DNA of 64,000 nt. It comes from Patescibacteria group bacterium. Lineage in GTDB: Bacteria; Patescibacteriota; UBA1384; XYA2-FULL-43-10; 1-14-0-10-43-13. The stretch is taken from NCBI GenBank assembly GCA_041649155.1, contig JBAZNP010000001.1, positions 302,564-366,563 of the forward strand, given 5' to 3'. This document shows, piece after piece, positions 38,552-64,000 of the stretch (its first letter is position 1; the number at the start of each line of letters is the position of its first letter). The translations under genes and the position numbers were made by a program. The notes beneath the pieces were generated by a model. It was not told the origin of the DNA, did no database searches, and worked only from the letters and a program-made list of their open reading frames with translations.

Positions 38552-39307
38552 ATGCTTGATGTTAAAATCGAGAAAATTTTGCCGGTAACTGAAGCAAGAG
38601 ATTCTTTTAATAAGTTGATTGATGAGGTGGAAAGCAGCGACGAACTTTATGTATTAACAAAAAACGGCAAGCCTGCTGCCGTATTAGTAGGCGTACATCA
38701 TTTAGAAAAATTAACCGGAACAAGCGAGGAGGAATTAATGGATCAAACAAATCAAAATGCAGCCAGTGATGCAAATGCAGTGCCTGTCACAACAGATGAC
38801 ACCACGCAAACAATAAGTGCTACACCGGCAACCGACATGCCAGAGCAATCAACGGAGGAGGCAACTCCCCCTATAGTTCCTGCGGTCGAAGAAAATAATT
38901 CGGCAATGCCTTTACAATCCGCTATGACAAATAACTCTGCAGAGGAAACCGCTCCTTTAACATCGGCAGCGCCAATTGAAAATATTGCTGCTGAAACTCC
39001 GATCACTGAACCGCAAACATCAGGAGCTACTGCTGATCCTTTGAGCAGTATTAATCAAACTGCTAGTGAGGCGACAACAGCACCTGCTAATAATGCCCCC
39101 GTCGAAGATCCGCTTGATTTTTTAAGCGATAATTCTGACCCGATATCACTAGCCTCAGAAGGTCCTGTATCGGCTCCCGATGCCGCAATGAGCGCTCCAG
39201 CTGCAATGCCAACCGAGGCGCCAGCAGCAACAGAACCAGCACCGGCAGCCCCTGTTCCAACCACAGAAACACCGGCTAATCCGACAACTCCCCCGATTGG
39301 TCAGTAG
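38552..39307 (+). CDS. Phd/YefM antitoxin-like N-domain fused to a ~190-aa Ala/Pro/Thr/Glu-rich disordered tail
   Basis: N-terminal ILPVTEARDSFNKLIDEVESSDELYVLTKNGKPAAVLVGVHHLEKL matches the Phd/YefM fold signature. The remainder is low complexity. Confidence 0.55.
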   Translation: MLDVKIEKILPVTEARDSFNKLIDEVESSDELYVLTKNGKPAAVLVGVHHLEKLTGTSEEELMDQTNQNAASDANAVPVTTDDTTQTISATPATDMPEQSTEEATPPIVPAVEENNSAMPLQSAMTNNSAEETAPLTSAAPIENIAAETPITEPQTSGATADPLSSINQTASEATTAPANNAPVEDPLDFLSDNSDPISLASEGPVSAPDAAMSAPAAMPTEAPAATEPAPAAPVPTTETPANPTTPPIGQ

Positions 39308-40145: not shown

Positions 40146-41144
40146 CTAGTCCTGAATTAGGTTAATAATTAACTTAATTATAGCATCTTTTTCTCTTGGA
40201 TTGCTCGAAGCAACAAGCAAAGCCAACGCCACTAACGTACGATCAGAAATTTTTGTTTCACCATTTTCTTTAAACAGAAAATTGTTCTTTTCTAAAAAAT
40301 ATAAGAATAAAAGCGACCCAATACGCTTATTGCCGTCAGAAAAAGGGTGGTCTTTTATTACAAAATACAATAAATGAGCTGCCTTTCCCTCGACTGAACC
40401 ATATAAATCTTCTCCACCAAAGGTCTGATAAAGATTGCCAATAATACCCTCAAACTGATGGTCCCTTTCAGAGCCGAAAAGATCGCCAACAATTTTCTTG
40501 GCGATTAAATCATCTTTTAGTCTGTCAATAATTTCACGACATTTGTAATACTTGAGAGCAAATTTAGCTTTCTTTTGCTTTTTAATTTCGATTTTGTTTT
40601 CATCATACTCACCCAGCACTTTCCATGTTTTGGAATACCTTTCGATGACATCTAGAATTTCTTGTTCGTGACCAGTAAGTTCAACTTGTTTCGCTTTTTC
40701 TGTAATAAATCTAATGATCGATTGAACCTCTTTAAATTTTTTATCGTTGATTGCGTAACCTTTGACTAAATAATTGCGCAGCGTTTTGGTCGCCCAGACA
40801 CGAAAATCAGTCGCTTTTTTAGAACTAACACGATATCCAATAGATAAAATCATATCCAAATTATAGAACTTAGTGTCATAAACCTTCCCGTCACTGGCAG
40901 TTATCCGGAATTTCCGGATAACTGAATTCTCTTCCAACTCTGCCTCTTTAAAAATGTTCTTTATATGCTCATTGATCGTTCGAACATCTTTACCAAAAAC
41001 TTCCCCAATTTGTTTTTGCGTCAGCCACACAGTCTCATCTTGGATTTTTGTCTTAATTTCAATGTTACCAGACTTCGATTTGTAAATTATTAATTCCCCT
41101 TCTTGCTTCATAATTCCTTCTTTTTTAAGTATATTGTAACACAA
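40146..41144 (-). CDS. RhuM-family N-domain fused to a Doc/Fic toxin-like domain
   Basis: N-terminal RhuM-like HTH region (WLTQKQIGEVFGKDVRTINEHIKNIF). C-terminal Doc-type motif HPFSDGNKRIG. The real start is probably the internal M at ~41111. Confidence 0.65.
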   Translation of the reverse strand: MCYNILKKEGIMKQEGELIIYKSKSGNIEIKTKIQDETVWLTQKQIGEVFGKDVRTINEHIKNIFKEAELEENSVIRKFRITASDGKVYDTKFYNLDMILSIGYRVSSKKATDFRVWATKTLRNYLVKGYAINDKKFKEVQSIIRFITEKAKQVELTGHEQEILDVIERYSKTWKVLGEYDENKIEIKKQKKAKFALKYYKCREIIDRLKDDLIAKKIVGDLFGSERDHQFEGIIGNLYQTFGGEDLYGSVEGKAAHLLYFVIKDHPFSDGNKRIGSLLFLYFLEKNNFLFKENGETKISDRTLVALALLVASSNPREKDAIIKLIINLIQD

Positions 41145-48139: not shown

Positions 48140-48273
48140 AAGACACAAGATACAATCAACCAATTAAATCTCAATGCTCAATTAATCAATGTTCAAACGT
48201 TTGAATCTTTGGTGATTGATTGTTGAATATTGTTTGGTTATTGTTCCTTGTCTCTTGTATCTTGCTTGTCTCC
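48140..48273. repeat. Family-D element: inverted heptamer-iteron arrays around a central palindrome TTCAAACGTTTGAA
   Basis: AAGACAC AAGATAC ... TTCAAACGTTTGAA ... CTTGTCT CTTGTAT CTTGCTT. About 80% identical to the copy at 63284-63416. Overlaps the 3' end of the recombinase gene. Confidence 0.7.
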
Positions 48274-49329
48274 TAACAAGCTCTTGCCGTGAAACTTTTG
48301 GTGTATTTCTCTTAAATGCTGATCGGTGACATGGGTATAAACCTGAGTGGTTGTTATCGAAGAGTGGCCAAGAAGTGACTGTACGCTTCTAATATCAGCT
48401 CCAGAAATTAACAAGTCAGTTGCAAAAGAATGTCTCAAGGTGTGAGGTGAAACCTTTTTGGCCAATCCTGCTCTTGTTGAATATTTTTTAACAATTCGCT
48501 CAATGGACCTAACCGTTAATCTCGTTTCTTTATTGGATAAGAATAAAGGAGGACTATTCTTCGAGGTCGATTTATCGGCCGAGAAGTTCTCCTGATAGTT
48601 CTCATCTTTCAGATTCGAACAATAGCCTCTCTCTTCCAAATATTCCTTTGTTGAACTTATTGCGCTCATTGACAAAAAAACGACTCTAAGCTTTTTACCT
48701 TTACCCAAGACAGCAATCTCGCCTCTTTCAAAATTTAAATCAGAAACATTTAATGAAGCAAGTTCTGACACTCTCATGCCGGTAGAAAATAAGATTTCCA
48801 GAATTGCACGATCTCGCAAACCAGAGGTAGAGTTTGTGTTAGGAGCATTTAAAATCGAATTCATTTCCTCTGATTCTAGAAAAGTAATTTCTCTGTCTCC
48901 TGTCTTTGCAACCGATACCTTTTCCGGAGACAAAGAACCTATGCCCCTAAAAGCCAGATACCGCAAAAAAGCCCTCAGCGCTAAAATATGATAATTCTGA
49001 GTCGATTTTTTTAGTTCCTTGCCATATCGATCCAGCAGGCGATTTACATGCAAGCGATATTGGCGAACAGCTTCCTGATCAATATCAGCAGGAGCAAGCT
49101 CTAATTTTTCATTTACCATTTTACATTGATCATTTATTTTGTCATTTATCATTTGATCATTTGGGTTTATTTCGGATTTCGGATTTCGGATTTCGGATTT
49201 ATAAGTTTCTAACCAAGTTAGAAACTTAGTAAGGTATCTATCGTAACCAGAAATGGTCAGGGCGGACCGCCCTTTGTCAAGTTCGCAGTATTCTAAGAAT
49301 TCTCTTTTGAGATTAAACAGATCAGGCAT
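48238..49329 (-). CDS. Tyrosine site-specific recombinase (XerC/XerD/integrase family) with a low-complexity N-terminal insertion
   Basis: Catalytic motifs RVSELASL, HTLRHSFATDLL and GHSSITTTQVYTHV. Confidence 0.85.
   Translation of the reverse strand: MPDLFNLKREFLEYCELDKGRSALTISGYDRYLTKFLTWLETYKSEIRNPKSEINPNDQMINDKINDQCKMVNEKLELAPADIDQEAVRQYRLHVNRLLDRYGKELKKSTQNYHILALRAFLRYLAFRGIGSLSPEKVSVAKTGDREITFLESEEMNSILNAPNTNSTSGLRDRAILEILFSTGMRVSELASLNVSDLNFERGEIAVLGKGKKLRVVFLSMSAISSTKEYLEERGYCSNLKDENYQENFSADKSTSKNSPPLFLSNKETRLTVRSIERIVKKYSTRAGLAKKVSPHTLRHSFATDLLISGADIRSVQSLLGHSSITTTQVYTHVTDQHLREIHQKFHGKSLLGDKQDTRDKEQ
49169..49200. repeat. Heptanucleotide tandem repeat (ATTTCGG) x4.6 inside the recombinase coding sequence
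   Basis: tatttcggatttcggatttcggatttcggattt, encoding ...NPKSEIRNPKSEI.... Confidence 0.8.
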
Positions 49330-50809: not shown

Positions 50810-51178
50810 ATGTCAAATAATCCAAACGATAAAAAAGAATTCAATTTAGAGGAAAGAACAACAGAATTTGCAAAAAGAGTTATCAGATTGTGTAAATCGA
50901 TACCAAGAAATCCTATAAATGATCGCATTACAGGACAATTGACCGGAAGTTCTGGATCGGTAGGAGCAAATTATCGAGAAGCAAATGATGCACTTGGTAA
51001 GAAGGATTTTATTCTAAGGATTAAGATTTCAAGAAAAGAAGCGAAAGAGGCCATTCATTGGTTAGAATGTTTAAAAGAAGCTAACAATGAAGGATACTAT
51101 CAAGAAATCAATTGCTGTATAAAAGAAGCAACTGAACTGAAGAACATTTTATCTTCAATACTTAATAAAGTCTGTTAA
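50810..51178 (+). CDS. Four-helix-bundle protein (23S rRNA IVS protein / Avd-like family)
   Basis: TGQLTGSSGSVGANYREANDA and KISRKEAKEAIHWL motifs typical of the TIGR02436-type family. Confidence 0.7.
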   Translation: MSNNPNDKKEFNLEERTTEFAKRVIRLCKSIPRNPINDRITGQLTGSSGSVGANYREANDALGKKDFILRIKISRKEAKEAIHWLECLKEANNEGYYQEINCCIKEATELKNILSSILNKVC

Positions 51179-51193
51179 TTGGATATTGAAAAT

Positions 51194-51236
51194 TGTTCCT
51201 TGTTTGTAATTTGTATCTTGTAACTTGTTTCTTAAA
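51194..51236. repeat. Family-D heptamer-iteron array, reverse arm, downstream of the four-helix-bundle gene
   Basis: aattgttccttgtttgtaatttgtatcttgtaacttgtttctt. Shares attgttccttgt and tgtatcttgtaacttgt with 48241-48270 and 63381-63416. Confidence 0.55.
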
Positions 51237-51246
51237 AGGAATCGAA

Positions 51247-51918
51247 ATGGATCAATCTTTAAAAAATAACTTGAATAAACCTTCAGCCAAAAACGATAAA
51301 AAACTACCATTGTGGCTTCGTTGGGTAATTTTGATTGCACTTGTAGTTTTAATATTTTTACTTTTGTTTTTACTGATAAAGCCGCTCCGAACCTACTCGG
51401 CACAAAAATACATCACAGAAGGAGATCAATATTTAGCCAATAAAGAATATTTGCATGCTGACTTGGCCTACGATAAAGCACTTACTCTTTTTCCGAGCAG
51501 TAAAGCAGCCGAAGAAAGAAAGACTTTAAACAAAGAGGCTTCTCAAAATGTTTTGGTTCTGGAAGATTTTTACAAATCAAATAACTTTAATAGTCAGAAA
51601 GAAAAGCTTGATGAGGCAACCGCTTTTCCAACAAATGAGACTGAGGCGGTTAAACTCTCAAAACAATTAATCGAAGAAAACGAATACCAATTAGCCATCA
51701 TTCCTGCTAAAACCGCAACCGAAATGGCGCCGGATTATAAAGACGCGTGGATTTATCTCGGCATCTCCAACTTAAAAACCGCCGAATTAGCGGACTTAAC
51801 CTCAAGTGTTCAAGCCGGATATATTAGCAAAGCAAAAGAAGCTTTTGAAAAAGCAAAACAAATCGATCCAGAATCAAAGACAGTGGATGATTATTTAGAT
51901 TCAATAGATAAATTGTAG
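51247..51918 (+). CDS. Membrane-anchored TPR-like repeat protein
   Basis: N-terminal TM helix (LWLRWVILIALVVLIFLLLFLLI) followed by helical repeats. The track ORF begins upstream at 51193. Confidence 0.5.
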   Translation: MDQSLKNNLNKPSAKNDKKLPLWLRWVILIALVVLIFLLLFLLIKPLRTYSAQKYITEGDQYLANKEYLHADLAYDKALTLFPSSKAAEERKTLNKEASQNVLVLEDFYKSNNFNSQKEKLDEATAFPTNETEAVKLSKQLIEENEYQLAIIPAKTATEMAPDYKDAWIYLGISNLKTAELADLTSSVQAGYISKAKEAFEKAKQIDPESKTVDDYLDSIDKL

Positions 51919-51975: not shown

Positions 51976-53022
51976 GTGATGCGAATAAAACTTATCTATA
52001 AAACACTTATTAATACAATTCTAGTTCTATCTTTGTTAATTAATATTTTAGTTATTAATGTCCCAAGATCTCATGCAGAAGATTTTGCCGTGTTTATATC
52101 TATTGGATCTAATCCAGCAGGAGCAACTGTAAAAGTTGACGGAAAGACCCTCCGAGATGTTTATACTCTTGGTTATGTTACAGATACATACGGCGGAGAA
52201 AGTTGTTTTGCATTAAGAGACCCAAGTAAAGCAAAGGAGTACTCACTTGAAGTTTCTTACCCTGGTTACAAAAGTTACACAAAAAAATTTGATCTGGCCT
52301 TGAATATAATAACGGATGAATGGGCAGCAGAAACAGAAGTTGATAAGCCTAAACCATGCACAAGTTCCACAAAAAGCAGTACTATCGATCTTGGAACTGT
52401 TAAACTTAGTAAGAATACAGAAGCAACAACTCCCAAAGGATCAGTGATTAAGGAATCATCTGGTGACACAGGAGCTTCCCAAGACGCTACCGGACTATCC
52501 ATTCCAACACTAAAAGCTACTGTCCAGCTGTATGAAAACGGTGTTGGAAAAATTAATTTAAACTGGTCTCCCCCAACAAAGCTGCCTTCTGGTGCGACTA
52601 TTTCCGGATATGAAATATCAAGAGGTTCTCCAGACAATAGTAACGCTAACGCTCAAAATAATATGGTAGAAATTGGACAATCAACCACCACCTCTTTTAC
52701 AGATACAGTTGCCGGCAGTCAGACTTATAATTACCAGGTATCATATAATCTATCAAACGGAGATGGCGGCGATTCTTCGAATATTTTGTCCATTACTCTT
52801 ACTAATAACGATATTCAGTTTAATAAATTTATAGTGCAAAACGTCCAGGAAAATACAGACGTAGACTATTGCCCTGGATCCAAGCTTTCACAACCAGCCA
52901 CATGGTTTGCTAGCAGTTTATGCGGACTAGGAGTAGTGCTTTGGAAAGCAGGAGAAAGCCTTATGGATTTCGCCCAAAAACAACTTTTAGCTGTATTAGG
53001 TTACACCAAAACAGGCTATTAA
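51976..53022 (+). CDS. Secreted protein with PEGA-like and fibronectin type III-like domains
   Basis: Signal peptide, then PAGATVKVDGK...PGYKSYTK (PEGA-like), then WSPPTKLPSGATISGYEISRG (Fn3-like). Confidence 0.45.
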   Translation: MMRIKLIYKTLINTILVLSLLINILVINVPRSHAEDFAVFISIGSNPAGATVKVDGKTLRDVYTLGYVTDTYGGESCFALRDPSKAKEYSLEVSYPGYKSYTKKFDLALNIITDEWAAETEVDKPKPCTSSTKSSTIDLGTVKLSKNTEATTPKGSVIKESSGDTGASQDATGLSIPTLKATVQLYENGVGKINLNWSPPTKLPSGATISGYEISRGSPDNSNANAQNNMVEIGQSTTTSFTDTVAGSQTYNYQVSYNLSNGDGGDSSNILSITLTNNDIQFNKFIVQNVQENTDVDYCPGSKLSQPATWFASSLCGLGVVLWKAGESLMDFAQKQLLAVLGYTKTGY

Positions 53023-53035
53023 GTTATAAATAATC

Positions 53036-55873
53036 ATGATTAGAAATATTAAAACATACAAAAAGACTCTGTTTGTTGCTTTCATATGCTTCATTCTTTC
53101 TGCTTGCTTATTTTCATTTGCTCCGAAAGCTCATGCCGCCTTTCAAATAGAGCCGATATATTCAGTTTTAAAAAATACTGACTCAGGCACAGGCCAACAA
53201 ATTAAAGAAATTTGGAGCAAAATAATTACTTATGTTAATTATTTTATTATTGCAGTGCTAATATTTGTTGCTTTTGCACAGATACTTCGCATTAATGTTA
53301 ATACGTATGGAATAAAAAAAATTCTTCCAGCCCTTTTACTCGCCATAATTGCAGCCAATTTTAGTTTTTTGTTCTGTCGATTACTTGTCGATCTGGCAAA
53401 TGTCACCTTGAGTCTGTTTATTGAAAACCCAGTTGACCATTCTGCTCTTTCGGCTAATTTTAGTGGAAGCTGGGCCAATCCTACAAATGCTTTGGAAGAT
53501 GGTAGCGTCGGAGACATAGTTTGGTTTATGATATCACAACTATTTGTTATAGTTGGCGCTGTTTTAGTACTTATTCTAGCGTATCTTTTTATTATTAGGA
53601 TTTGGATGGTTTACTTTCTAGTTGTCCTTGCCCCTCTTGCTTTTATGTCTACAGTCCTGCCTGCCACAAAAAGCCTTTTCAATCAGTGGTGGAGCAACTT
53701 TGCCAAATGGGTTTTCATGCCGGTAGTTTCAGTATTCTGGATATGGCTAGGCAATCAATGGGTGGGATCAATTAAGAATGATTCTATGATGAGCTATGTC
53801 TTTGCTGGAGTCTGTTACTATCTGGCAATCACCACTCCGTTCAAGATGGGTGGAGCGATAATGAGCGGCTGGGCCAATTTTGGCAAAAAAGCATACAACA
53901 ACTGGGCTACCAGAAAAGCAAAGGAGAAGTGGGTTGATCCTGCAATACAAGAAGTTAAAGATAACGCAATGTCTTGGTACAGATCACAAGGAAGCGGACA
54001 TAAATATAACCCGATTGGCATGATTGCCAGACGAGGAAAGAGAGTTGAAGACAGAAGAAAAGACGCGACAGAAAGAGCAGCAGCATGGGATAATACCCTC
54101 TACAGAGAAGCAATGGGTGGCAAAGAAGGCCAATATTTAAGCAAAGCCAAACAAGAAGCCATAGGAAAACGTAAAGCTGACATTAGTTCTCTATTAGGCG
54201 AAAAAGAATGGATGGAGCAACATTTAGAGGAACTTCACCTGGGAACAGAAGCTGGGAAGGAAGATTTAGACAGCCGCGTTCAGTTTTATTTTAGAACACA
54301 AGGCACCGATAAGGCAGTGGAAAGACTGAATTCTCAAGCGAAAGCTGATGTGCTGGCAGAGGAACCAGGCGAAGGGCAAGGAGACTTTTTCAAGAACCAA
54401 AATTACGTCCATTGGTACAAAAAATGGGTTGAAGAAAATGCGAAAAACAGACCTGCTGTTGCTTCGGCAAAAAAACTTGAGGCTGATATCCTATCAGATA
54501 CATATCTTGATGCAGCGAAACTCAATCTAACTCTTTTGGGCTATAAAGCTTCAAAAAATACTTTGATCGACGTAGAAAAAATCCTGAAGGATCCAACATC
54601 CCTACCAGAAGAAGAGAGAAACAAACTAGAAAAAAAATACCGTATTGGCAATATCGCACAACTTAGCGGGGCCGAAAGAAAGTCTTTAACGACAATATAT
54701 CAAGAGACAAAGAAGAAAAATGATCTTGCAGAATCCGACTTTAGTCTGCAAAGTGCCGCTCTTTTAAAGAAATATGCAAAGACGGACAGTCAGGGAAATG
54801 TTGTTGGGTTTAAAGGCATGTCAGATATTTTAGAGAAAATGTGGAAGGATCAAAATGGTAATTTTACCACCAGCATAAATAAAGTTAGAGAGATGGCTGA
54901 TGTGAACGGAATTTCAGAAGCTGCAAAAGGTATGTGGAATGACAGGCTAGCAAAAGAGCTGGCCAACGACCACAACGAAGAACTCAGGGCGACCCAATCA
55001 AAACGTTCTAGTCTTGGCGCCGAGATCTATCTTCAAACCGAGATGCCTGCTGATTATGAACTTCATCTACAAGGAAGAGATGGCGCTATAATCGGCTCAA
55101 GAAGCAAAAAGGTTTATGCCGAAGTCAACCACTCAACAAAGGCAGCTCCGCAAAATCCCGAAACAGCAACAATTTATCAGCTAAAAGGCGAACAAGAAGC
55201 CAGAATCGCTTCAACCGATTGGGAAAGAGGAAAAGCTTCAAGAGATGTCTTGTCAAGCTCTGTTGCTGAAGCCTTGGAAAAATTTATGAAAAGTAGTCAA
55301 ACTCTCAACAAAGCTACTACAAATGCGATGGAAAAAATGGCCAACGAAATTGCTAAATCACAAAATGTTTCTGCCGAAAAATTAAAGGGATTTGTTGAGA
55401 CCTATAAGAAAAAAACAGATTTCACCGAAGAAGAAAAAACAAAGATGAAACAATACCAAGAAGAAACACTTAAAGATATTGCAAGCGATTTTTATAACAT
55501 AAAGGGGACAAAAAAAGAAGCTGGGTACAACCAGAACATTCATGTTTATCATGATGAAACAGGCAACCTAAAAGTTAGCTTACTAGACAGTGTTAACAAA
55601 GATAGCGCCCAAGGTGCCCTAAAGCAACAAGCTGAGATAGCCAGCATATTAAACACATCAATTATTAATCATACTTCAAGAAGCGGACCGGGCGCCGATG
55701 CCCGAAACGGTTTAATGGCTAGAAGGATCTTAGCAACTCCGGTTGTAAACACAGAAGCACATGTTGCATTTTATGAAAAACCCTACCTGCCTCCAAAGAT
55801 TGTATCTGAAAAAGAGATTGAAGAATATGGAGACGAACCAATAGAATTTAAAGAATTCGGAGAAAATGCATGA
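53036..55873 (+). CDS. VirB6/TrbL/TcpH-like polytopic membrane protein with a long charged coiled-coil C-terminal domain
   Basis: Signal peptide, ~7 TM helices in the first ~300 aa, then ~640 aa of K/E-rich hydrophilic sequence. This is the architecture of Gram-positive VirB6 analogues. No sequence-level proof. Confidence 0.45.
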   Translation: MIRNIKTYKKTLFVAFICFILSACLFSFAPKAHAAFQIEPIYSVLKNTDSGTGQQIKEIWSKIITYVNYFIIAVLIFVAFAQILRINVNTYGIKKILPALLLAIIAANFSFLFCRLLVDLANVTLSLFIENPVDHSALSANFSGSWANPTNALEDGSVGDIVWFMISQLFVIVGAVLVLILAYLFIIRIWMVYFLVVLAPLAFMSTVLPATKSLFNQWWSNFAKWVFMPVVSVFWIWLGNQWVGSIKNDSMMSYVFAGVCYYLAITTPFKMGGAIMSGWANFGKKAYNNWATRKAKEKWVDPAIQEVKDNAMSWYRSQGSGHKYNPIGMIARRGKRVEDRRKDATERAAAWDNTLYREAMGGKEGQYLSKAKQEAIGKRKADISSLLGEKEWMEQHLEELHLGTEAGKEDLDSRVQFYFRTQGTDKAVERLNSQAKADVLAEEPGEGQGDFFKNQNYVHWYKKWVEENAKNRPAVASAKKLEADILSDTYLDAAKLNLTLLGYKASKNTLIDVEKILKDPTSLPEEERNKLEKKYRIGNIAQLSGAERKSLTTIYQETKKKNDLAESDFSLQSAALLKKYAKTDSQGNVVGFKGMSDILEKMWKDQNGNFTTSINKVREMADVNGISEAAKGMWNDRLAKELANDHNEELRATQSKRSSLGAEIYLQTEMPADYELHLQGRDGAIIGSRSKKVYAEVNHSTKAAPQNPETATIYQLKGEQEARIASTDWERGKASRDVLSSSVAEALEKFMKSSQTLNKATTNAMEKMANEIAKSQNVSAEKLKGFVETYKKKTDFTEEEKTKMKQYQEETLKDIASDFYNIKGTKKEAGYNQNIHVYHDETGNLKVSLLDSVNKDSAQGALKQQAEIASILNTSIINHTSRSGPGADARNGLMARRILATPVVNTEAHVAFYEKPYLPPKIVSEKEIEEYGDEPIEFKEFGENA

Positions 55874-56760
55874 TTTTTGAACTTTCCGATTTTGATAGAA
55901 TAAAAAAATACTCTTTTATTATGGAAGAGAAAACTTTTGCTGAATTGCAAGAATATATTTCTTCGCTGTCTAAACAAGAGTTTTATTTAATTTGGTCGTT
56001 TATCTTTGGATCTGAAATTTTTGGCGAGATTTCTTCTCACAAGATAAAACTGACCGAATTTTTAGCCAAAGAGAATAATGTCAAAATTATGTCAGAGGAT
56101 GCAACAAGAATAGTTTTTACTATTGCCATGTATTACAAATCCGGCTTTAATGCGATAAACAAAGCTTTAGAAAATGAAGTCGGCTCATTGTTCCAACTTT
56201 CAGAGTCTTATAATTCAAATGGCCGCATTGTCACATGGCAGACAATTGCCAAAAGAGCTTTTGAAATCAGAAACGGCATACAAAATCACGCATATCTTTT
56301 AGTGAAAGACTCTGTTAAAGAAGTTATGAGTTACTATAAAATCGACAACCATAAGGATGCCGAGGCAATAGAAAAATTACTCTCACTATCTCTTGAGATA
56401 TTGAAGGTATTTGTCTTAAAAAAGGATTTTTCGTTTAAAGATGCGGAATCTAAAGATTTGTTTGTAAAAATAGAACACTTTTATTCCATGACAAACCATC
56501 TGAAGATGGACATCGAATCCCTGAAAAATGAGGAAAGTTACGATAAAGTTCTAACATACATTGTAAATATGAGGAATGTTTTTCAAGCAAAATTGCATTT
56601 AATTAATCAAAAAATGCCATTAAATGATTATACCGCGGCTCAAAATTTTATTATAAAAAACATGGCGAGAAAAGAAATGGACCGGTATTTGAGTCTGGAA
56701 GAAATTAACCGATTGGGCATAAAACTTGATAGGCTGCAGCCGTCACAGCCCAAAGCATAA
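55870..56760 (+). CDS. Hypothetical all-alpha cytoplasmic protein, translationally coupled to the VirB6-like gene
   Basis: ATGA overlap with upstream gene. No TM segments. 296 aa. Confidence 0.4.
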   Translation: MIFELSDFDRIKKYSFIMEEKTFAELQEYISSLSKQEFYLIWSFIFGSEIFGEISSHKIKLTEFLAKENNVKIMSEDATRIVFTIAMYYKSGFNAINKALENEVGSLFQLSESYNSNGRIVTWQTIAKRAFEIRNGIQNHAYLLVKDSVKEVMSYYKIDNHKDAEAIEKLLSLSLEILKVFVLKKDFSFKDAESKDLFVKIEHFYSMTNHLKMDIESLKNEESYDKVLTYIVNMRNVFQAKLHLINQKMPLNDYTAAQNFIIKNMARKEMDRYLSLEEINRLGIKLDRLQPSQPKA

Positions 56761-56770
56761 AGGAGAACAT

Positions 56771-57088
56771 ATGGAAAATGAACACGGGTTATCACCTAAA
56801 GATATGGGCATTGATAATGAAGAAGAAACACAAATAGTAACAGGGCAAGAAGATTTGTCTTCGCTAAATAACGGAATTCATATCGAAAACGAAGCGACTC
56901 CAGTAAATGAAGCCGTGGAACATACAGCAAGTCAAAATGAACATACGGCCCAAAGGCCTGTAATGGGCGGAGAAATCCCAAAATCCTCTCCCCGACCAAC
57001 TATCGGAAATGAAAGCGTGATGAAAGATTTTGCAGATATTGCCGAAGGAATTGAAAAAGAGTCAGGCTTGGACAACTTGTCAAAATAG
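56771..57088 (+). CDS. Small acidic hypothetical protein
   Basis: AAGGAG RBS 6 nt upstream of ATG. 105 aa, E/N/G-rich. Confidence 0.35.
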   Translation: MENEHGLSPKDMGIDNEEETQIVTGQEDLSSLNNGIHIENEATPVNEAVEHTASQNEHTAQRPVMGGEIPKSSPRPTIGNESVMKDFADIAEGIEKESGLDNLSK

Positions 57089-57240
57089 ATTCTTAGTTTA
57101 AGTTAGCATTTAATTTTTGTCTTCTTTTAAAGATTTTTTTTGTGATATAATTAATACAGAAATGGATGGCAAACATCAACTAGAGTAAAGCCCCAGCTAG
57201 ATAACCCCCATGGGATATCAAGCGGGGCATGGAGGAGTAA

Positions 57241-57645
57241 TTGCAGTTTAAGGTTCCGCAAAATATAGACATGCAGGACAGAATCTTGGGGCCTCTTACC
57301 ATGATTCAGTTTATTTATGCTGTAATCGGCAGTGGAATTTGTTACGCAATTTTTAGTACAGTTCCTAAACCTTTTTCATTTGTGCTCATTCTACCAATAG
57401 CATTATTCGTACTAGCTCTAATTTTTCTAAAAATAAACGAACGCCCTTTTCTAGATTTTTTATTCTCACTTTCCGCCTTCATGACCACACCCAAAAATCG
57501 TGTCTGGCAGCACGATGTTGCGTCCAATTTAAGCGTGGAAATCTATCAATCCAGCCCAATAAATCAAAATAACAATATTCAAACGAAGCAGTTTACCCAT
57601 GAGCAAATACAGGAAATGGCCAAACGAATTGATCAAAAAAGATAA
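57241..57645 (+). CDS. PrgI/VirB3-like small membrane protein
   Basis: TTG start with a GGAGGAG RBS. Two TM helices (GPLTMIQFIYAVIGSGICYAIF; FVLILPIALFVLALIFL). Positioned just upstream of VirB4 as in Gram-positive T4SS loci. Confidence 0.5.
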   Translation: MQFKVPQNIDMQDRILGPLTMIQFIYAVIGSGICYAIFSTVPKPFSFVLILPIALFVLALIFLKINERPFLDFLFSLSAFMTTPKNRVWQHDVASNLSVEIYQSSPINQNNNIQTKQFTHEQIQEMAKRIDQKR

Positions 57646-57670
57646 CTAATCATGTAGGTTTGTTAAAAAA

Positions 57671-58627
57671 ATGGCAAATAATGTAGGTAGCACACAATCG
57701 AATATCAAAATTGCAGGCATAAAAGACGGTATTGTTTTTTTGGAAGACGGAGGTTACCGCGTAATCTTGTCATGTTCAACGGTTAATTTTGCTCTTAAAA
57801 GCGAACAGGAACAAAATTCATTGGTTTTCCAATATCAGAGCTTTCTGAATTCACTCCATTTTCCTATTCAAATTGTTATGCAGTCAAAGAAACTCGATTT
57901 AACGCCCTATCTTCAGAAAGTAAATAACTTAAAAGAGAAACAAACGAATGAACTGATCAAAATGCAAGCTACTGACTACATTGATTTCGTAGGCAATTTG
58001 ATTAATGTAGCGAATATTATGAAGAAGAATTTCTATGTGGTCATCCCCTACCAGCCACTTTCTCTCACTAAAGGATCAATGTTTGACAAGATATTTAAAA
58101 AACCGGCAGCAGGCCCACTCCGAGTCTCCGAAGAAGAACTTAAACGGCACAAAGAAGAATTGGTGCAAAGAGCCAATACAGTCGCTATGGGATTAGGAAG
58201 CATGGGCATACAGTGTGTTCAATTAAATACCGAGGAAATTATTGAATTGTTTTATAAGATATATAATCCGGAGATTTCAGGAAAAGAAAGATTGGGAGAC
58301 ACCGACAAATTGACCTCATCATTTATTACAAATGAGAAGGGCCAGCAAGCAGAAGAGCAAAAAACAGAGGAAACCGTGATTGATAATACAGCAATCGTGC
58401 AACAAAAACAGAAGCAAGATTCGCAAATTGCGCACAGACAAGATCTAAATCAGAATACAGATAACGCCGCATCCGACAAAGTCGAAGCAGGCGTCCCTGC
58501 TTCCGCAGAGCGGAATGCGGGACAAACAGCAGATAGTAGTAATCAGGGCACAGCCGCACTAACTCCAGTAAATCCACCAGCACAGGCAGAACAAACCAAC
58601 CAAACTGGGAATGGATTTGGAGCATAA
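57671..58627 (+). CDS. VirB4 N-terminal-domain-like protein with a ~100-aa disordered Q/E/T/N-rich tail (encoded separately from VirB4)
   Basis: IKDGIVFLEDGGYRVILSCSTVNFALKSEQEQNSLVFQYQSFLNSLHFPIQIVMQSKKLDLTPYL resembles the first ~150 aa of long Gram-positive VirB4 proteins (Tn916 Orf16/TcpF type). Confidence 0.45.
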   Translation: MANNVGSTQSNIKIAGIKDGIVFLEDGGYRVILSCSTVNFALKSEQEQNSLVFQYQSFLNSLHFPIQIVMQSKKLDLTPYLQKVNNLKEKQTNELIKMQATDYIDFVGNLINVANIMKKNFYVVIPYQPLSLTKGSMFDKIFKKPAAGPLRVSEEELKRHKEELVQRANTVAMGLGSMGIQCVQLNTEEIIELFYKIYNPEISGKERLGDTDKLTSSFITNEKGQQAEEQKTEETVIDNTAIVQQKQKQDSQIAHRQDLNQNTDNAASDKVEAGVPASAERNAGQTADSSNQGTAALTPVNPPAQAEQTNQTGNGFGA

Positions 58628-58742
58628 CATAATCAATAATTCCAAAATCCTAATGACTAATTACAAATAAAATGTCAAATGATTTAATGTCAAAAAACTC
58701 AGTAATTTGAAATTAGGATTTAGAAATTAGCAAATAATCAAG

Positions 58743-60566
58743 GTGAATATGGCAGACTTAGACAACAACACACAAAATACCTCTTCTGATCCTCGAGCCA
58801 TCGCTCAGGCAAATATAAAAAGCCGGGAAAACATGGCTGCTTTAGGCGTTTCTCCGGAAGAATTAGCCAAAGGCACTTCATCAATAAGAGATATCATCGC
58901 TCCGGCAGCTTTTGCCATTAACTCAAACTTTCTCCAAATAGGATCATTATTCACAAAAACCCTATTTGTTTTTACTTACCCCAGATACATTGAAACAAAT
59001 TGGCTTTCTCCTATTATTAATTACGACATAACGATTGATATGGGAATGTATATTCATCCGCTCGAATCAAAAGATGTAATGATGGACTTAAAGAAACAGG
59101 TCGGTAAGATCGAGTCGTCCATGATGATTGGACAAGAAAAAGGAGCTCCAAGGGATCCAGAAATGGAGACTGCATTAGGGGACGTGGAAGCTTTAAGAGA
59201 TGTTCTTCAACGAGGGGAAGTAAGACTTTTTCAATTCGGCCTATATTTTACGGTGTATGCCACCTCTCAAGAAGAGCTTAAGACCATTACCGAACAACTT
59301 GAATCAACATTGGGTGGTCTTTTAATTTACACAAAAGAAGCACTGTTCCAAATGGAGCAAGGGTTTACTTCCACTCTGCCCTTAATGATGGATGAGCTTA
59401 ACGTTTTGCGAAATTTTGATACTGGCTCTCTGTCCTCCACTTTCCCCTTCACCTCGACAGAATTAACTCAAGATGACGGAATTCTTTACGGAATAAACAG
59501 GCATAATAATTCGCTTATCATTTTTGACCGGTTTAACCTTGAAAACGCAAATGCAGTAGTCTTTGCTAAATCCGGCTCAGGTAAATCTTATTTTGTAAAA
59601 CTTGAAGCACTTAGATATTTAATGCTTGGAACCGATGTGATTGTAATTGATCCTGAGAATGAGTATAAAGCTCTCTCAGAAGCAGTCGGCGGAAGTTATC
59701 TTGAAATATCGCTAAATTCAGATAAAAGAATAAATCCTTTTGATTTGCCGGTCGGATCAGAAGAATCAGGCGAAGATGTCTTAAGATCAACAATCGCCTC
59801 TCTGCATGGCCTGATCAATTTGATGGTTGGAGGTTTAAATCCGGAAGAGGATGCTGTAATAGATAAAACCTTGTATGAAACATATGCCCTAAAAGACATT
59901 ACTACCGATCCGGAAAGCCAGAAAAATGAGCCGCCGTTAATGCAGGACTTTTACAATGTCTTATCAAATATGGCAGGAACAGAATCACTTCGGGCAAGAC
60001 TGTCGAAATATGTGGAAGGTACTTTTGCTTCGCTTTACAACCAAAAGACCAATTTTCAACTAAATCCTGGTTTCGTTGTTTTCTCTGTTCGCGATCTTGA
60101 GGAGCAGCTCAGGCCGGTAGCAATGTACACGATTTTGGATTACATTTGGACCAAAATACGAATGGACATGAAACAAAGAGTGATGATCATAGACGAGGCA
60201 TGGTGGATGATGCAATACGAAGATTCCGCCAAGTTCTTACATGGGCTTGCTAAAAGAGCAAGAAAGTATTACCTCGGCTTAACCATTATCAGTCAGGACG
60301 TGGAAGACTTTTTGGGAAGCAAATATGGCAAAGCAGTCGTGGCAAACTCTTCGATGCAGATTCTAATGAAGCAATCTACCGCATCAATTGACATTGTTTC
60401 CGAGGTATTTAATCTTACTGAAGGGGAAAAATATTTGCTTCTTGAATCAGATGTCGGAGAGGGCTTATTCTTTGCCGGCTTGAATCACGTGGCGATGAAA
60501 GTAGTGGCTTCATACACAGAAGACAAGATTATAAACACCGATCCGAGCAAAATGGTAGAAGGATAA
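58743..60566 (+). CDS. VirB4/TrsE/TraC-family type IV secretion ATPase
   Basis: Walker A FAKSGSGKSYF, Walker B VMIIDEAWWM, and the VirB4 N-domain pattern IRDIIAPAAF...FTKTLFVFTYPRYIETNWL. RBS AAGGTG. Confidence 0.8.
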   Translation: MNMADLDNNTQNTSSDPRAIAQANIKSRENMAALGVSPEELAKGTSSIRDIIAPAAFAINSNFLQIGSLFTKTLFVFTYPRYIETNWLSPIINYDITIDMGMYIHPLESKDVMMDLKKQVGKIESSMMIGQEKGAPRDPEMETALGDVEALRDVLQRGEVRLFQFGLYFTVYATSQEELKTITEQLESTLGGLLIYTKEALFQMEQGFTSTLPLMMDELNVLRNFDTGSLSSTFPFTSTELTQDDGILYGINRHNNSLIIFDRFNLENANAVVFAKSGSGKSYFVKLEALRYLMLGTDVIVIDPENEYKALSEAVGGSYLEISLNSDKRINPFDLPVGSEESGEDVLRSTIASLHGLINLMVGGLNPEEDAVIDKTLYETYALKDITTDPESQKNEPPLMQDFYNVLSNMAGTESLRARLSKYVEGTFASLYNQKTNFQLNPGFVVFSVRDLEEQLRPVAMYTILDYIWTKIRMDMKQRVMIIDEAWWMMQYEDSAKFLHGLAKRARKYYLGLTIISQDVEDFLGSKYGKAVVANSSMQILMKQSTASIDIVSEVFNLTEGEKYLLLESDVGEGLFFAGLNHVAMKVVASYTEDKIINTDPSKMVEG

Positions 60567-60572
60567 TTGGCA

Positions 60573-60647
60573 AGATAACAGCTGGACAGTTAGACAGTTT
60601 TACAGATAGCAGACCCACTGTTATCTGTCTAGCTGTATTCTGTATAC
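60573..60647. repeat. Family-C inverted repeat (AGATAACAGCTGGACAG ... ACTGTTATCTGTCTAGCTGTATTCTGTATAC) upstream of the M15 hydrolase gene
   Basis: Right arm near-identical to 43771-43800. Confidence 0.6.
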
Positions 60648-60658
60648 TTATTTAAAGG

Positions 60659-61831
60659 ATGGGGATGGATAAAAAAGACAGCAATATGAGCATTGCTAAA
60701 ACACTTACAGTCGCCAGTATTTTGTCTGTATTGGCGATAGTTGTGCTGGCAGTAAGCATCGCAGGGATGGGCTTTAAGGGCGAAGGAGAGCCTACGCCTT
60801 ATGGTGATGATGGAATAAAAGCTGGCGCAGGAGGCTGCTACCTGAAAGATGAGGCTTTTACTGATATTGGAACAATAAAAAGTGTCGATGATGTTTTTTC
60901 CAAGATTGGCAGTAACTACTCAGCTTTAAATAACGACAAAAATAAAGAAAACCTTCAAAAAATAATTACCAGCTCAATAAATGCTGAAAACGGCACAAGC
61001 GTAAAAGGCATTAATCCTGCAATTTTAATTTCTTTTTATTACGGCGAACAAACCTTTGATCCAGATGATGATTACAAAGCATTCGGCTGCGGCCACTATT
61101 CAAAAGGAGCTAGTGACGCTGGTTTTGACAACCAACTAACTTGTGCCCTTCCCGCAATTAAAAAGGCCATAGAAAAAGATCCTGTTTACGACACACCTGC
61201 CGGCGAAAATACATGGACCCGTCTTCTTTATCATTATGTTGGGGGCGACAAAGATCACATAGTGGGCAAATATGCTTATGATGTTAAAAAACTAGGCTAT
61301 GTGTCAGATAGTAGCGAAGCTAGAATTCAGCTCTTAAATGATTTAGTGCCGGATCAAGTAACTTGCGAGGCCGCAGCAGGAAAAAGTATTTTCGCCAGCC
61401 TAGATCAAGTTCAAATGTATTTTGGTACGACCCCAGAGCAGATAAAAAAACACCTGGAAACAATGAATTTTATGGGACAGGATATAACTGTAAATGAAAT
61501 GATGGTGGATGATTTGAAAAACGTTGAGACAGCATTAAAGAAAATAAATTACAAGATAACCAGCATAGGGGCATATAATAATAGAGAAAATGTAAATAAC
61601 CCGGGGAATTCAAGTTCACATGCATTTGGATTAGCAATTGATATTAATCCCAGTGCAAATCCGAATGCGAAAAGGCCGACAGACAGTAAAGAACGAGATC
61701 CTTCTGCCTGCAAAACCGACATCCCTACGCAGGTAGTTAAAGCGTTTGAAGATAATAACTTTTTCTGGGGCGCAAAATTCAAGGACATTTGCGATCCAAT
61801 GCATTTCCAATATGGTGGAAACTGGCAATAA
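60659..61831 (+). CDS. Membrane-anchored peptidoglycan hydrolase, peptidase M15 (VanY/LAS) family
   Basis: N-terminal TM anchor. C-terminal zinc-ligand motifs SSHAFGLAIDINP and DPMHFQYGG. Confidence 0.7.
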   Translation: MGMDKKDSNMSIAKTLTVASILSVLAIVVLAVSIAGMGFKGEGEPTPYGDDGIKAGAGGCYLKDEAFTDIGTIKSVDDVFSKIGSNYSALNNDKNKENLQKIITSSINAENGTSVKGINPAILISFYYGEQTFDPDDDYKAFGCGHYSKGASDAGFDNQLTCALPAIKKAIEKDPVYDTPAGENTWTRLLYHYVGGDKDHIVGKYAYDVKKLGYVSDSSEARIQLLNDLVPDQVTCEAAAGKSIFASLDQVQMYFGTTPEQIKKHLETMNFMGQDITVNEMMVDDLKNVETALKKINYKITSIGAYNNRENVNNPGNSSSHAFGLAIDINPSANPNAKRPTDSKERDPSACKTDIPTQVVKAFEDNNFFWGAKFKDICDPMHFQYGGNWQ

Positions 61832-61850
61832 GGCAGGAAAACAAGCTGAA

Positions 61851-61870
61851 CCTGCCTGCCGGCAGGCAGG
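61851..61870. repeat. Perfect GC palindrome CCTGCCTGCC-GGCAGGCAGG after the M15 gene stop
   Basis: 20-bp perfect palindrome with no adjacent T-run. May be a terminator or another repeat unit. Confidence 0.4.
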
Positions 61871-61899
61871 GCTTGGGCAGCAAGCTAATCACATAATGC

Positions 61900-61997
61900 G
61901 TCATCCCAGACTGTGACTTGAGATCTGGGATCCAGTAGAGAATTCAACCTCACCTAGCCTCTCCTTCGAAAGGAGAGGAATTATATCAGAATGACAA
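61900..61997. repeat. Family-A composite element (~98 bp): GTCATCCCAGA...TCTGGGATCCAG, second hairpin CCTCTCCTT-CGAA-AGGAGAGG, then ...AGAATGAC
   Basis: Left unit near-identical to 36594-36621. Terminal GTCAT...ATGAC inverted ends. Confidence 0.65.
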
Positions 61998-62032
61998 TTG
62001 TCCCATAATTCATAATTCAAAATTCTAACCAT

Positions 62033-63280
62033 ATGAATGTTCATCTAAAAAAATTAACTTACAAAGTGTATATTGTCTCAGCGGTTATATTGATGGCAAT
62101 TGTTTTTGGAATTTGGGTTTTGACCAACTCATTTTTAAGCATCAAAGTATCACCTAGAGACGCATCTGTTTTCATTGACGGCGAACAAATAGAAGTAAAC
62201 AGTTTTGGCTTCGCCAAGGAGCGACTTTCTTTCGGCGAGCATCAAATAAAGATTGAACTGGACGGCTATGTTAGCATGATAAAATCAGTTATATTAAAAA
62301 GAGGAAGAACGAATAGTCAAAACATCACTCTTAAGACATTGCCAGCCACGGTAAAAATTGCAAATTTTGGCAGCTTTTTGACAAAAGGCGTTAATTCTGA
62401 TGAGTTTTTCTACCTTGGAAATGACGGAGGGGCAATTTTCAGAACAAAAATTCAGTTGAATGACAGCGGAATTGTAATTCCAACCAGCAATGCTATAACC
62501 AATTCAAATCTCTGGGGAATTAATGAAATAATCTGGTCGCCGAAGAAAGACTTAGCGCTCTTTAGAAAATCTGACGGCGTTTACTTGTTTGACTTCAAAA
62601 AATATGACTTTGTGAACCAGACGGAAACTTTGTGGGGCGAAAATGTCGGAAGCATTGCATGGGCGCCTGATGATTCCAAAATCGCCTATTACGCCTCAGA
62701 TGAAAAAACGCTCATTTTCTCTAACGCAGATAATTCGAGCAAAGAAAGAATTTTAAATCTTGAAAATATAGATATAACCAACCCAGTATTAAGATGGTCC
62801 CCTGATTCAGAATGGTTAGCCATAATCCCCAGAAATTCGAATAAAAATGACAATAAAATATACCTTTTAAATGCATATAGCAGAGTTATAAAACCGGTAA
62901 TCAACACTGGAAATAAACTGGATGTTACTTTTTCTCAAAATAATAAAATATTTTATTCCAGTTTAAGCCGCGGCACGCAAGGTTCTTCGACTATATCAAC
63001 CATAAACACAGATGGGACTGAGGATTCAGCTTTAAACCTTTACACCAATATAAATTGTATTTTAATGCTAGATCAGGGGGACAATATTTTAGCAGCTTCG
63101 CAAGACGGAGAAAGTCAAGAAGAGTCGATTTTCAAATTTAATATCAAAAATAACAAACAGGAAGATTTTTCAATCAAACTATCAGAAAACGAGTCAGTTA
63201 ATACGCTTTTGACCACAGTTGATGATAAAGTTGTAATTTACGAAACAGAAAGCGGAATTTACGCAGTAAATATAAATTAG
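62033..63280 (+). CDS. Membrane-anchored protein with PEGA-like domain and TolB-like beta-propeller repeats
   Basis: N-terminal TM helix. ISIKVSPRDASVFIDGEQ...GEHQIKIELDGYVS (PEGA-like). Repeated WSPD/WAPDD motifs as in TolB. Confidence 0.45.
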   Translation: MNVHLKKLTYKVYIVSAVILMAIVFGIWVLTNSFLSIKVSPRDASVFIDGEQIEVNSFGFAKERLSFGEHQIKIELDGYVSMIKSVILKRGRTNSQNITLKTLPATVKIANFGSFLTKGVNSDEFFYLGNDGGAIFRTKIQLNDSGIVIPTSNAITNSNLWGINEIIWSPKKDLALFRKSDGVYLFDFKKYDFVNQTETLWGENVGSIAWAPDDSKIAYYASDEKTLIFSNADNSSKERILNLENIDITNPVLRWSPDSEWLAIIPRNSNKNDNKIYLLNAYSRVIKPVINTGNKLDVTFSQNNKIFYSSLSRGTQGSSTISTINTDGTEDSALNLYTNINCILMLDQGDNILAASQDGESQEESIFKFNIKNNKQEDFSIKLSENESVNTLLTTVDDKVVIYETESGIYAVNIN

Positions 63281-63435: not shown

Positions 63436-64000
63436 TTGGCAGTAGGAGAGGAAAATAAAAAGAGAAAACTAGATATTGAGCAAAAACCGGATAGATTATC
63501 TGGCGGTTTTATAGGTGCCAAGCAAACCAATGATGGCTTCAAAAAAACATTGCCTGTTGATTCGCTGACTAAAAAATATACTGTTTCGGTCACAGAAAAA
63601 CACTTAATCGGCAAAGCGGGCGGATCTCAAAGGCCGTCTGCTCCCACAAACAGAAATGCTATTAAACAAGAGCTTTTAGACCAAGCGAAGAAAGACCTAC
63701 GACAAGCGCAGGGGTTATCTCGACAAAAACCAGAGGATGAATACGGAGGCGGACCAGCTCGAAGATCGTACCAATTGTCAAAGCAAGATCAAGACGGTTT
63801 TGCAGATAAAAATGATGAAATCTATTCTGATTTTGACGGTGAGAAACAGTCGCAGCAACGAAGAGATGGCCGTGCTCAAAACAATGGGCCGGTGAATGAT
63901 GATTCTCAAAAAAACCAACCCGAGGACGGGGATAATGATGACGGCTCCAAAGACGGCCCAAACATTAAAAACTCAATTGTAAACAGGGCAACTGATTATT
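63436..64000 (+). CDS. Partial (3'-truncated) hydrophilic low-complexity protein, possible TTG start
   Basis: Open frame to the window end, read by hand: LAVGEENKKRKLDIEQKPDRLSGGFIGAKQ.... GGGAGGGG lies 5 nt upstream of the TTG. The minus-strand track ORFs in this region look spurious. Confidence 0.3.
   Translation, partial: MAVGEENKKRKLDIEQKPDRLSGGFIGAKQTNDGFKKTLPVDSLTKKYTVSVTEKHLIGKAGGSQRPSAPTNRNAIKQELLDQAKKDLRQAQGLSRQKPEDEYGGGPARRSYQLSKQDQDGFADKNDEIYSDFDGEKQSQQRRDGRAQNNGPVNDDSQKNQPEDGDNDDGSKDGPNIKNSIVNRATDY

Follow-up and report, generated by a model that had tools for sequence, protein, structure and literature searches.

The closest described relatives of the locus analyzed here are the type IV secretion systems (T4SSs) of Patescibacteria, which are among the few machines shown to be essential for epibiotic life. 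In a recent survey, VirB4 was found in 2,417 of 3,035 Patescibacteria genomes, nearly all of it in one clade nested in the mating-pair formation type FATA (MPF-FATA). TrsD was its commonest companion, PrgI/VirB3 and VirB6 lay nearby, relaxases were almost absent, other hydrolases replaced VirB1, VirB2-like pilins lay near virB4 in 1,135 assemblies and dnaA/dnaN were often close (Quinonero-Coronel 2025, PMC12102498). The T4SSs of this phylum are also treated in a 2025 review (PMC12857230), and the hypotheses published for their function are effector export and nucleic-acid import (PMC11665869, PMC12857230). Our subject is a T4SS locus at the end of a 64,000-nucleotide stretch of a Patescibacteria group bacterium (assembly GCA_041649155.1, contig JBAZNP010000001.1, positions 302,564 to 366,563). 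This whole stretch, hereafter the window, covers 64 kb of a genome of ∼0.8 Mb, and distant genes lie outside it.

In Southlakia epibionticum, the locus SEML1_0006-0019 is essential for epibiotic growth by transposon sequencing (Tn-seq) and is without a recognizable relaxase or type IV coupling protein (T4CP) (Wang 2023, PMC10633639). Its genes run in the order VirB6-like (0013), NTF2-like (0012), 0011, PrgI (0010), TrsD-like (0009) and VirB4 (0008), and virB4 is followed by a protein of Hedgehog/DD-peptidase (M15) fold (0007), a lysozyme/cysteine peptidase (0006), an exported PEGA protein (0005) and a prealbumin-like protein (0004); genes 0004-0013 in Table S2 were all scored essential (PMC10633639). 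The window shares with Southlakia an extended VirB6, PrgI, a TrsD-like protein, VirB4, an M15-fold peptidase, a further hydrolase and an exported PEGA protein, on the chromosome and with no relaxase or T4CP in the locus. Six VirB2-like pilin genes, the NTF2-like (VirB8-like) protein, a second VirB6-like giant and an adjacent dnaA are found in Southlakia only, whereas the window alone has a single VirB6, a TolB-like propeller on its PEGA protein and a hypervariable gene 5' of VirB6. The Southlakia PEGA protein in the equivalent place is shorter.

The likeness to the surveyed clade is of the same kind: TrsD, PrgI/VirB3 and VirB6 stand beside an MPF-FATA-derived VirB4, with no relaxase and an alternative hydrolase, whereas neither the pilins near virB4 nor the proximity of dnaA/dnaN reported for that clade is found in the window, which contains no dnaA (PMC12102498). 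Further afield, the staphylococcal pGO1/pSK41 Trs systems (TrsC-TrsD-TrsE) and the MPF-FATA systems (pCF10 Prg/Pcf, CTn2 CD1110 family) have the same triplet of VirB3-like protein, TrsD and VirB4 and, like the window, no outer-membrane core; TrsD is specific to the pGO1 subclass (PMC12102498). Those systems differ in being borne by plasmids or integrative and conjugative elements (ICEs) and in having a relaxase, a T4CP, a VirB8-like protein and an SLT/CHAP VirB1-like hydrolase, none of which was found here, where an M15 peptidase is present instead.

We conclude that the locus is very probably a chromosomal, vertically inherited T4SS of the Patescibacteria clade, which derives from MPF-FATA, is no longer tied to a relaxase and T4CP, and serves epibiotic interaction. 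An initial sequence-only reading of this DNA had proposed a non-conjugative T4SS core with neither relaxase nor coupling protein in a small-genome, episymbiont-like bacterium, and this functional interpretation is upheld: VirB4, PrgI and VirB6 were identified and none of the DNA-processing genes lies nearby. Its further statement that the combination is not a described architecture fails, because a relaxase-less, chromosomal TrsD-PrgI-VirB4 set with an extended VirB6 upstream has already been described. The backbone is known in ∼2,400 Patescibacteria genomes (PMC12102498), and the M15-fold and PEGA proteins 3' of virB4 appear in Table S2 of PMC10633639. The T4SS itself is ordinary, and our claim is the modest one that nothing beyond a few accessory genes specific to the lineage seems undescribed.

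All sizeable open reading frames (ORFs) from 51.2 kb to the window end are on the + strand, separated by short gaps or overlapping. Every ORF of the sequence-only reading is present at its coordinates on that strand, and its gene list was correct except for the omission of the TrsD-like ORF between PrgI and VirB4. The genes of the locus are as follows.

51193-51918, + strand: membrane-anchored TPR protein (sub-threshold Pfam TPR match; one transmembrane (TM) helix, residues 44-62; deposited start 51247).
51976-53022, + strand: hypervariable exported protein of 348 aa (signal peptide; partial PEGA/prealbumin-like match; deposited start 51979).
53036-55873, + strand: VirB6-like extended polytopic channel subunit of 945 aa (signal peptide, ∼6 TM helices).
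55870-56760, + strand: soluble all-helical protein of 296 aa with no domains (4-nt overlap with the VirB6 stop).
56771-57088, + strand: acidic, fast-evolving soluble protein of 105 aa with no domains (annotated in the public record).
57241-57645, + strand: PrgI/VirB3-like two-TM protein (PF12666).
57671-58627, + strand: TrsD-like protein of 318 aa, corresponding to a VirB4 N-terminal domain with a low-complexity tail of ∼100 aa (NCBIfam TrsD).
58743-60566, + strand: VirB4 ATPase (conju_CD1110; deposited start 58749).
60659-61831, + strand: membrane-anchored Peptidase_M15_4 protein (60.3 bits; N-terminal TM helix; deposited start 60665).
62033-63280, + strand: TM-anchored protein with PEGA domain and TolB-like beta-propeller (PEGA above cutoff; TolB by family profile).
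63436-64000 and past the window end, + strand: start of a gene for a 504-aa membrane peptidase-like protein (TM helix, LAS/M15-like motifs).

For the comparison with other genomes, ORFs were called and clustered around virB4 in 80 genome loci (L001-L080). A wider set of 141 loci includes L081, a public record with an identical VirB4, and the nearest relatives, L143 and L144.

The sequence-only reading had called a VirB4 and a PrgI/VirB3 protein, and both calls hold; it had also named an affinity of the ATPase to HerA or FtsK as the finding that would speak against a T4SS. VirB4 scores 366 bits against NCBIfam conju_CD1110 (cutoff 325), 180 against TraC-F, 124 against VirB4_CagE and 53 against CedB. 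Its best match in the PDB is 4ag5, a Gram-positive-type VirB4 (1.9e-44), with TrwK next, and its PDB matches comprise VirB4 and TrwK only, with no HerA or FtsK chain among them. A DUF87 match (34.5 bits) is confined to the P-loop stretch, and Walker A (AKSGSGKS) and Walker B (VMIIDE, residue 480) are intact. By these matches the ATPase is a genuine VirB4 of the MPF-FATA type and belongs to neither HerA nor FtsK.

PrgI matches PF12666 at 42.1 bits (cutoff 27) in an alignment that begins at residue 4, and two TM helices are predicted. Its TTG start lies five bases past a GGAGG (57231-57235), and an extended -10-like TGATATAAT is present 5' of the gene at 57143-57151; a scan for promoters and terminators returned the same counts as shuffled controls and was uninformative. 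The gene is uncalled in two public records of the locus (L081 and L143), and automated annotation therefore under-reports VirB3 here.

The ORF that follows is TrsD-like by NCBIfam TrsD (3.7e-5) and has a precomputed assignment to PF26593, TraC-like. On the 752-position CD1110 model it covers positions 11-118 and the VirB4 ORF positions 172-732, while on the Mbov_0397 VirB4 model the two spans are 126-233 and 292-893. The two ORFs thus tile one VirB4 model, pointing to one ancestral VirB4 that was split in two. This split is not a sequencing artefact, because both genes are carried by 75 of the 80 related loci. PrgI lies directly 5' of TrsD in 70 of the 80, and the order PrgI-TrsD-VirB4 is invariant in the ORF clustering.

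Metagenomes hold very many relatives of this VirB4 at 74-96% identity, with 8,000 candidates scored. The best 120 relatives (74-100% identity) are almost all named Patescibacteria or unclassified metagenome-assembled genomes (MAGs). The same names cover the 80 genome loci (VirB4 53-93% identical), with one Nevskiaceae, and the closest named relatives among these 80 best genome loci are Berkelbacteria; both statements follow naming, not phylogeny. Berkelbacteria-type loci (VirB4 62-93% identical) have the order UppP, TPR, exported variable protein, VirB6, soluble variable protein(s), PrgI, TrsD, VirB4, hydrolase(s), PEGA-propeller, a membrane protein of ∼500 aa and a giant secreted protein. The full contig of the window conforms to this at its far end, where the conserved locus extends beyond the window with the 504-aa gene and then a 2492-aa secreted protein. 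At the near end, the TPR gene lies 5' of VirB6 in 10 related loci and is 84% identical in L143; the TPR protein at 51193-51918 is a member of the conserved UppP-TPR-...-VirB6 synteny, and its being part of the machine is uncertain.

The weak similarity of VirB4 to CedB, an archaeal DNA-import ATPase, bears on a narrower form of our reading, in which the locus encodes a ComB/Ced-like uptake machine importing host DNA or RNA for a nucleotide-auxotrophic epibiont. Patescibacteria are without nucleotide synthesis, S. epibionticum requires its T4SS but not comEC, and T4SS-mediated uptake has been proposed by reviewers (PMC11665869, PMC12857230); a 2026 preprint reports host-RNA feeding and tubular interface structures, possibly T4SS pili. 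However, when the locus was tested for a Ced/ComB-type import ATPase, the CedB score fell far under the cutoff of 700 and CedD reached 26 bits against a cutoff of 600, and the best match is a conjugative VirB4. No DNA-binding or nuclease component is recognizable in the locus, nor is a pilin, and the direction of transport is not readable from sequence. We consider such an uptake machine unlikely, if still worth bearing in mind. Our best guess is that the cargo and direction are protein export to the host, with import of host nucleic acids as the main alternative.

The 945-aa membrane protein was the second point on which the sequence-only reading could have fallen, had it proved unrelated to VirB6/TcpH. 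Alone it stays below the Pfam TrbL threshold (19.9-21.5 bits vs 25.9), but TrbL is matched by 14 of its 37 positional homologs (best 7.7e-9) and TrbL_4 by two, and its database homologs carry PF19590 TrbL_3, some of them being named TrbL/VirB6. The top PDB match of the family profile is TrwI, the VirB6 of R388 (E 0.0038). Likewise, R388 TrwI/VirB6 (7o3v, 8rt9) and the Legionella DotA protochannel (9ngy) are the best PDB structural matches to its TM domain, at TM-scores of only 0.41-0.46 and 10-15% identity. This family-level and structural evidence supports a VirB6-type channel subunit. Its TM helices lie at residues ∼50-285. A Lys/Arg-rich stretch comes next and leads into a helical C-terminal domain of ∼650 aa, which is probably cytoplasmic.

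The two small proteins between VirB6 and PrgI, in which the sequence-only reading had recognized no domains, indeed match nothing in Pfam or NCBIfam. The 296-aa protein (55870-56760) has no TM helix and no PDB match, and its family profile matches neither PDB nor Pfam. It is 72-81% identical in the nearest relatives, and a full HMMER search of 1.84 billion proteins returned no more than 36 representative clusters, each of ∼290 aa; judged by these searches, the family is real but small and lineage-restricted. An AlphaFold2 (AF2) model built with three homologs as input was unusable (pLDDT 54). The 105-aa protein (56771-57088) is 45-54% identical in L143 and L144. In other clades the slot between VirB6 and PrgI holds other soluble families, some of them interrelated and none related to the 296-aa family. 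No candidate for a VirB8-like (NTF2) protein was found with Pfam or NCBIfam; the proteins between VirB6 and PrgI have no TM helix and are predicted to be helical, and the low confidence of the model precluded a search at the level of structure. Insertions were seen in two related loci, both leaving the genes undisrupted: in L144 (7254-8005), Bro-N and GIY-YIG endonuclease genes lie between a small unknown ORF and PrgI, and in L004 (1823-2458) an IS200-type transposase lies inside the T4SS locus.

Scans of essentially every ORF of at least 230 aa found no relaxase or T4CP in the window. Neither a survey for small two-TM ORFs resembling VirB2 pilins nor a VirB2-like hidden Markov model (HMM) gave a candidate there. 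Both absences had been reported by the sequence-only reading. The pilin HMM has no match in the closest ∼24 loci either, with no pilin within 10 kb of virB4 in the window's clade, and does match in L029-L036 and in Paceibacteria-type loci.

If the locus were instead the conjugative T4SS of an integrative element, intact or decayed to a remnant, the case for it would draw on the monoderm conjugation descent of VirB4, PrgI, TrsD and VirB6 and on a tyrosine recombinase at 48238-49329, 2.6 kb upstream. Its relaxase and T4CP would have to lie elsewhere or be too divergent; T4CP homologs are often far from virB4 in the phylum, and a few genomes have relaxases (PMC12102498). Against this stand the absence of both genes from the 64 kb and a uniform, unremarkable GC content with no anomaly. 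The flanks are housekeeping (LeuRS, TsaD, FemAB, Mur ligase, Xer-like recombinase, PAP2, UppP), and the order UppP-TPR-...-VirB6-...-VirB4 recurs in many genomes. The recombinase, PAP2, UppP and the order of the flank are kept in relatives, which speaks for a locus fixed in the chromosome and against an insertion. Moreover, VirB4 identity follows genome relatedness. In the published survey inter-class transfer is rare, and the distant T4CP homolog of S. epibionticum is non-essential whereas its T4SS is essential (PMC12102498). We hold an integrative element or its remnant to be very unlikely, and the locus is probably not conjugative.

The M15 murein hydrolase call of the sequence-only reading is borne out by a Peptidase_M15_4 match of 60.3 bits (cutoff 25) in the protein at 60659-61831. 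An N-terminal TM helix precedes a middle domain of unrecognized fold, with an invariant G-x-N-P-A...E motif, and the C-terminal Peptidase_M15_4 domain; the middle domain might be transglycosylase-like (SLT-like), an unverified assignment. The family profile found no relative in the PDB. The slot after virB4, occupied by M15_4 in the window, holds Peptidase_C39_2, Amidase_3 (with or without SLT) or M23 in other genomes (L001-L042), and the presence of unrelated hydrolase families in one slot points to non-orthologous replacement in the VirB1 role. Comparison of the N-terminal regions of the different hydrolases by hhalign gave weak links only (67-96%). By analogy, we take the M15 peptidase to be a functional analogue of VirB1.

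The 504-aa protein has a charged N-terminal region, a TM helix and C-terminal LAS/M15-like motifs (HANGRAVDLD ... SHIHIDI). It reaches Peptidase_M15_3 at E 0.19 only, and its homolog in L001 scores 26.8 bits against M23 (cutoff 28.7). We had also considered this gene as a pilin fusion, which is ruled out: it has no pilin-HMM match and has LAS-peptidase motifs instead. The 2492-aa secreted giant that follows is kept in 29 related loci (for the region from 63436 onward, L081 14688-21818); it has the motif S-x-H-x-x-G-x-A-x-D and no Pfam match.

This density of peptidoglycan hydrolases (the M15 gene, the second LAS-like gene and the motif of the giant protein) could instead suggest an envelope-remodeling or surface-assembly module, which would export or anchor the neighboring surface and giant proteins or act in cell-wall turnover. 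The surface proteins are conserved in the locus, and no parts for substrate recruitment are recognizable. However, all four translocon parts (VirB3, VirB4, VirB6 and TrsD) are present and highly conserved, the surface proteins have Sec signals or anchors of their own, and hydrolases are normal accessories of T4SSs. Such a module is in our view very unlikely.

The sequence-only reading had placed PEGA, Fn3 and TolB-like exported proteins in the module. For 62033-63280, PEGA (23.8 bits vs 20.8) and a TolB-like propeller stand; the PEGA match of the protein at 51976 is only partial, and Fn3 is unconfirmed (ChitinaseA_N, E 0.05). TolB is sub-threshold for the window protein alone, and the profile of its family matches the TolB propeller at 4e-8. 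The PEGA-propeller family comprises 62 ORFs, 60 of them in L001-L080, mostly 3' of virB4. Even in loci with another upstream context, virB4 keeps its linkage to the hydrolases and to the PEGA-propeller. In a reverse test, metagenome contigs were fished with the PEGA-propeller alone, with a narrower alignment, as the broad 61-sequence alignment has no conserved stretch; a locus counted as informative if its homolog was at least 30% identical and was preceded by 4.5 kb of sequence or more. Upstream virB4 on the same strand was found in all of these (23/23). The PEGA-propeller matches the core genes in the tightness of its linkage to virB4. In Paceibacteria- and Kaiserbacteria-type loci (L048-L080), it adjoins VirB2-like pilin genes (T4SS_pilin 25.8 bits), for instance in L071 (14118-14858) and L067 (14208-14618). 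The survey text and the available part of its supplement (PMC12102498) make no mention of PEGA, TolB or propeller neighbors of virB4, and our literature search found no paper linking PEGA domains with T4SSs.

The gene at 51976-53022 ends 14 nt 5' of VirB6. The PEGA match of its product extends over 18 residues only, and no full-length homolog was found in the 141 loci. Its positional equivalents all share a C-terminal module of ∼50 residues (residues ∼297-347), which in the alignment has two invariant Cys (299 and 316) and then a helix-loop-helix ending in S/A-I/L/V-G. Built from nine sequences, an HMM of this module picked up five more of these equivalents (E 1e-10 to 4e-5), and it matched no other ORF called in the genome loci. 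The contrast with the rest of the locus is sharpest in the nearest relatives. VirB4 of L143 and L144 is 95-96% identical to that of the window, and the other compared locus genes are 45-93% identical, yet the ectodomain is unrelated in L143 (3195-4400) and L144 (1485-3128), the three proteins having 347, 401 and 547 aa. Their similarity is confined to the last ∼50 residues, which BLASTP aligns at 66% identity for L143, whereas for L144 they are aligned solely in the module alignment. At the DNA level, collinearity with L143 (73-85% identity) is lost exactly between 51896 and 53128. A VirB2 pilin hairpin was considered for the C-terminal module and ruled out (hhalign probability 0.3%), and the profile of the module has no PDB match.

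In classical operons, virB5 sits directly upstream of virB6. The R388 pair TrwJ/VirB5-TrwI/VirB6 has, like the window, an exported-protein gene directly 5' of the VirB6 gene; the analogy to VirB5 is positional only, and no similarity to VirB5 was detected in the protein of the window. Replacement of the ectodomain despite 95-96% VirB4 identity, with a short module kept, is the pattern expected of a host-specificity determinant. From its linkage we infer that the hypervariable protein may be a strain-specific host-recognition subunit in the VirB5 position, held by its C-terminal module.

Several points weigh against a vertically inherited Patescibacteria-clade T4SS serving epibiosis. A role in epibiotic growth would be transferred by analogy from a single species of Saccharimonadia, S. 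epibionticum, and the T4SS there includes a pilin array, of which the window locus has none. Membership in the Patescibacteria clade rests here on profile scores and the names of relatives, not on phylogeny. Neither a VirB8-like (NTF2) protein nor a VirB2 pilin was found in the window, which makes the extracellular architecture a guess. VirD4-like T4CP homologs are common elsewhere, with 5,713 in 2,918 Patescibacteria genomes (PMC12102498), and since the window covers only 64 kb of ∼0.8 Mb, a distant T4CP, relaxase or pilin is possible. Finally, the linkage of the PEGA-propeller to virB4 is partly shared synteny of related genomes and is not proof of physical association.

With these points in mind, a working scheme for the proposed epibiotic T4SS can be drawn from the families present. 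VirB4 and TrsD, as hexamers, would dock on PrgI and VirB6 and power a translocon in the cytoplasmic membrane, in which the polytopic protein of VirB6 fold would supply the membrane channel subunit. The M15/LAS peptidases may open the epibiont's own wall locally, in the VirB1 role, or possibly that of the host. The PEGA-propeller and the hypervariable protein, as their linkage suggests, could form an extracellular, host-facing part, and the machine would translocate macromolecules by contact with the host bacterium. More specifically, it is possible, if rather doubtful, that T4SSs of the Berkelbacteria type have an undescribed extracellular part instead of a virB4-adjacent pilin array, which would set host range: a VirB6-docked, strain-swapped, VirB5-like hypervariable cassette protein together with the PEGA-TolB propeller that is linked to virB4 across several classes.

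This locus tells nothing new about what the system is, and points to candidates for its host-facing parts. The linkage of the PEGA-propeller to virB4, the hypervariable neighbor of VirB6 and the variable hydrolase slot are undescribed in the literature searched; we regard them as modestly novel leads and not as a new system.

A gene for a PF05635 four-helix-bundle protein ("23S rRNA-intervening-sequence protein") lies at 50810-51178, just before the TPR gene. This copy is missing from the close relative L143 and therefore represents an indel; PF05635 genes occur at varying positions in the T4SS loci L011, L013-L016, L018, L020, L045, L059, L071, L074, L078 and L080.

Farther upstream, the window contains a surface-glycan region of ∼35 kb (1320-37864) with several glycosyltransferases, RmlA/B/D-like enzymes, a GDP-mannose dehydratase, a fusion of NeuB and a cytidylyltransferase (nonulosonic acid), a DegT aminotransferase and an ABC-2/Wzt exporter. 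GC content rises inside this region, up to 0.42-0.47 at 18-20 kb and 30-34 kb. GC skew in the window tracks gene orientation, and for this reason no replication origin is inferred. A Phd/YefM antitoxin-domain protein (38552-39307) and a RhuM plus Fic/DOC protein (40146-41144) are encoded among housekeeping genes, and a SAM riboswitch (RF00162) is present at 1086-1215 on the - strand, at 56 bits against a gathering score of 44.

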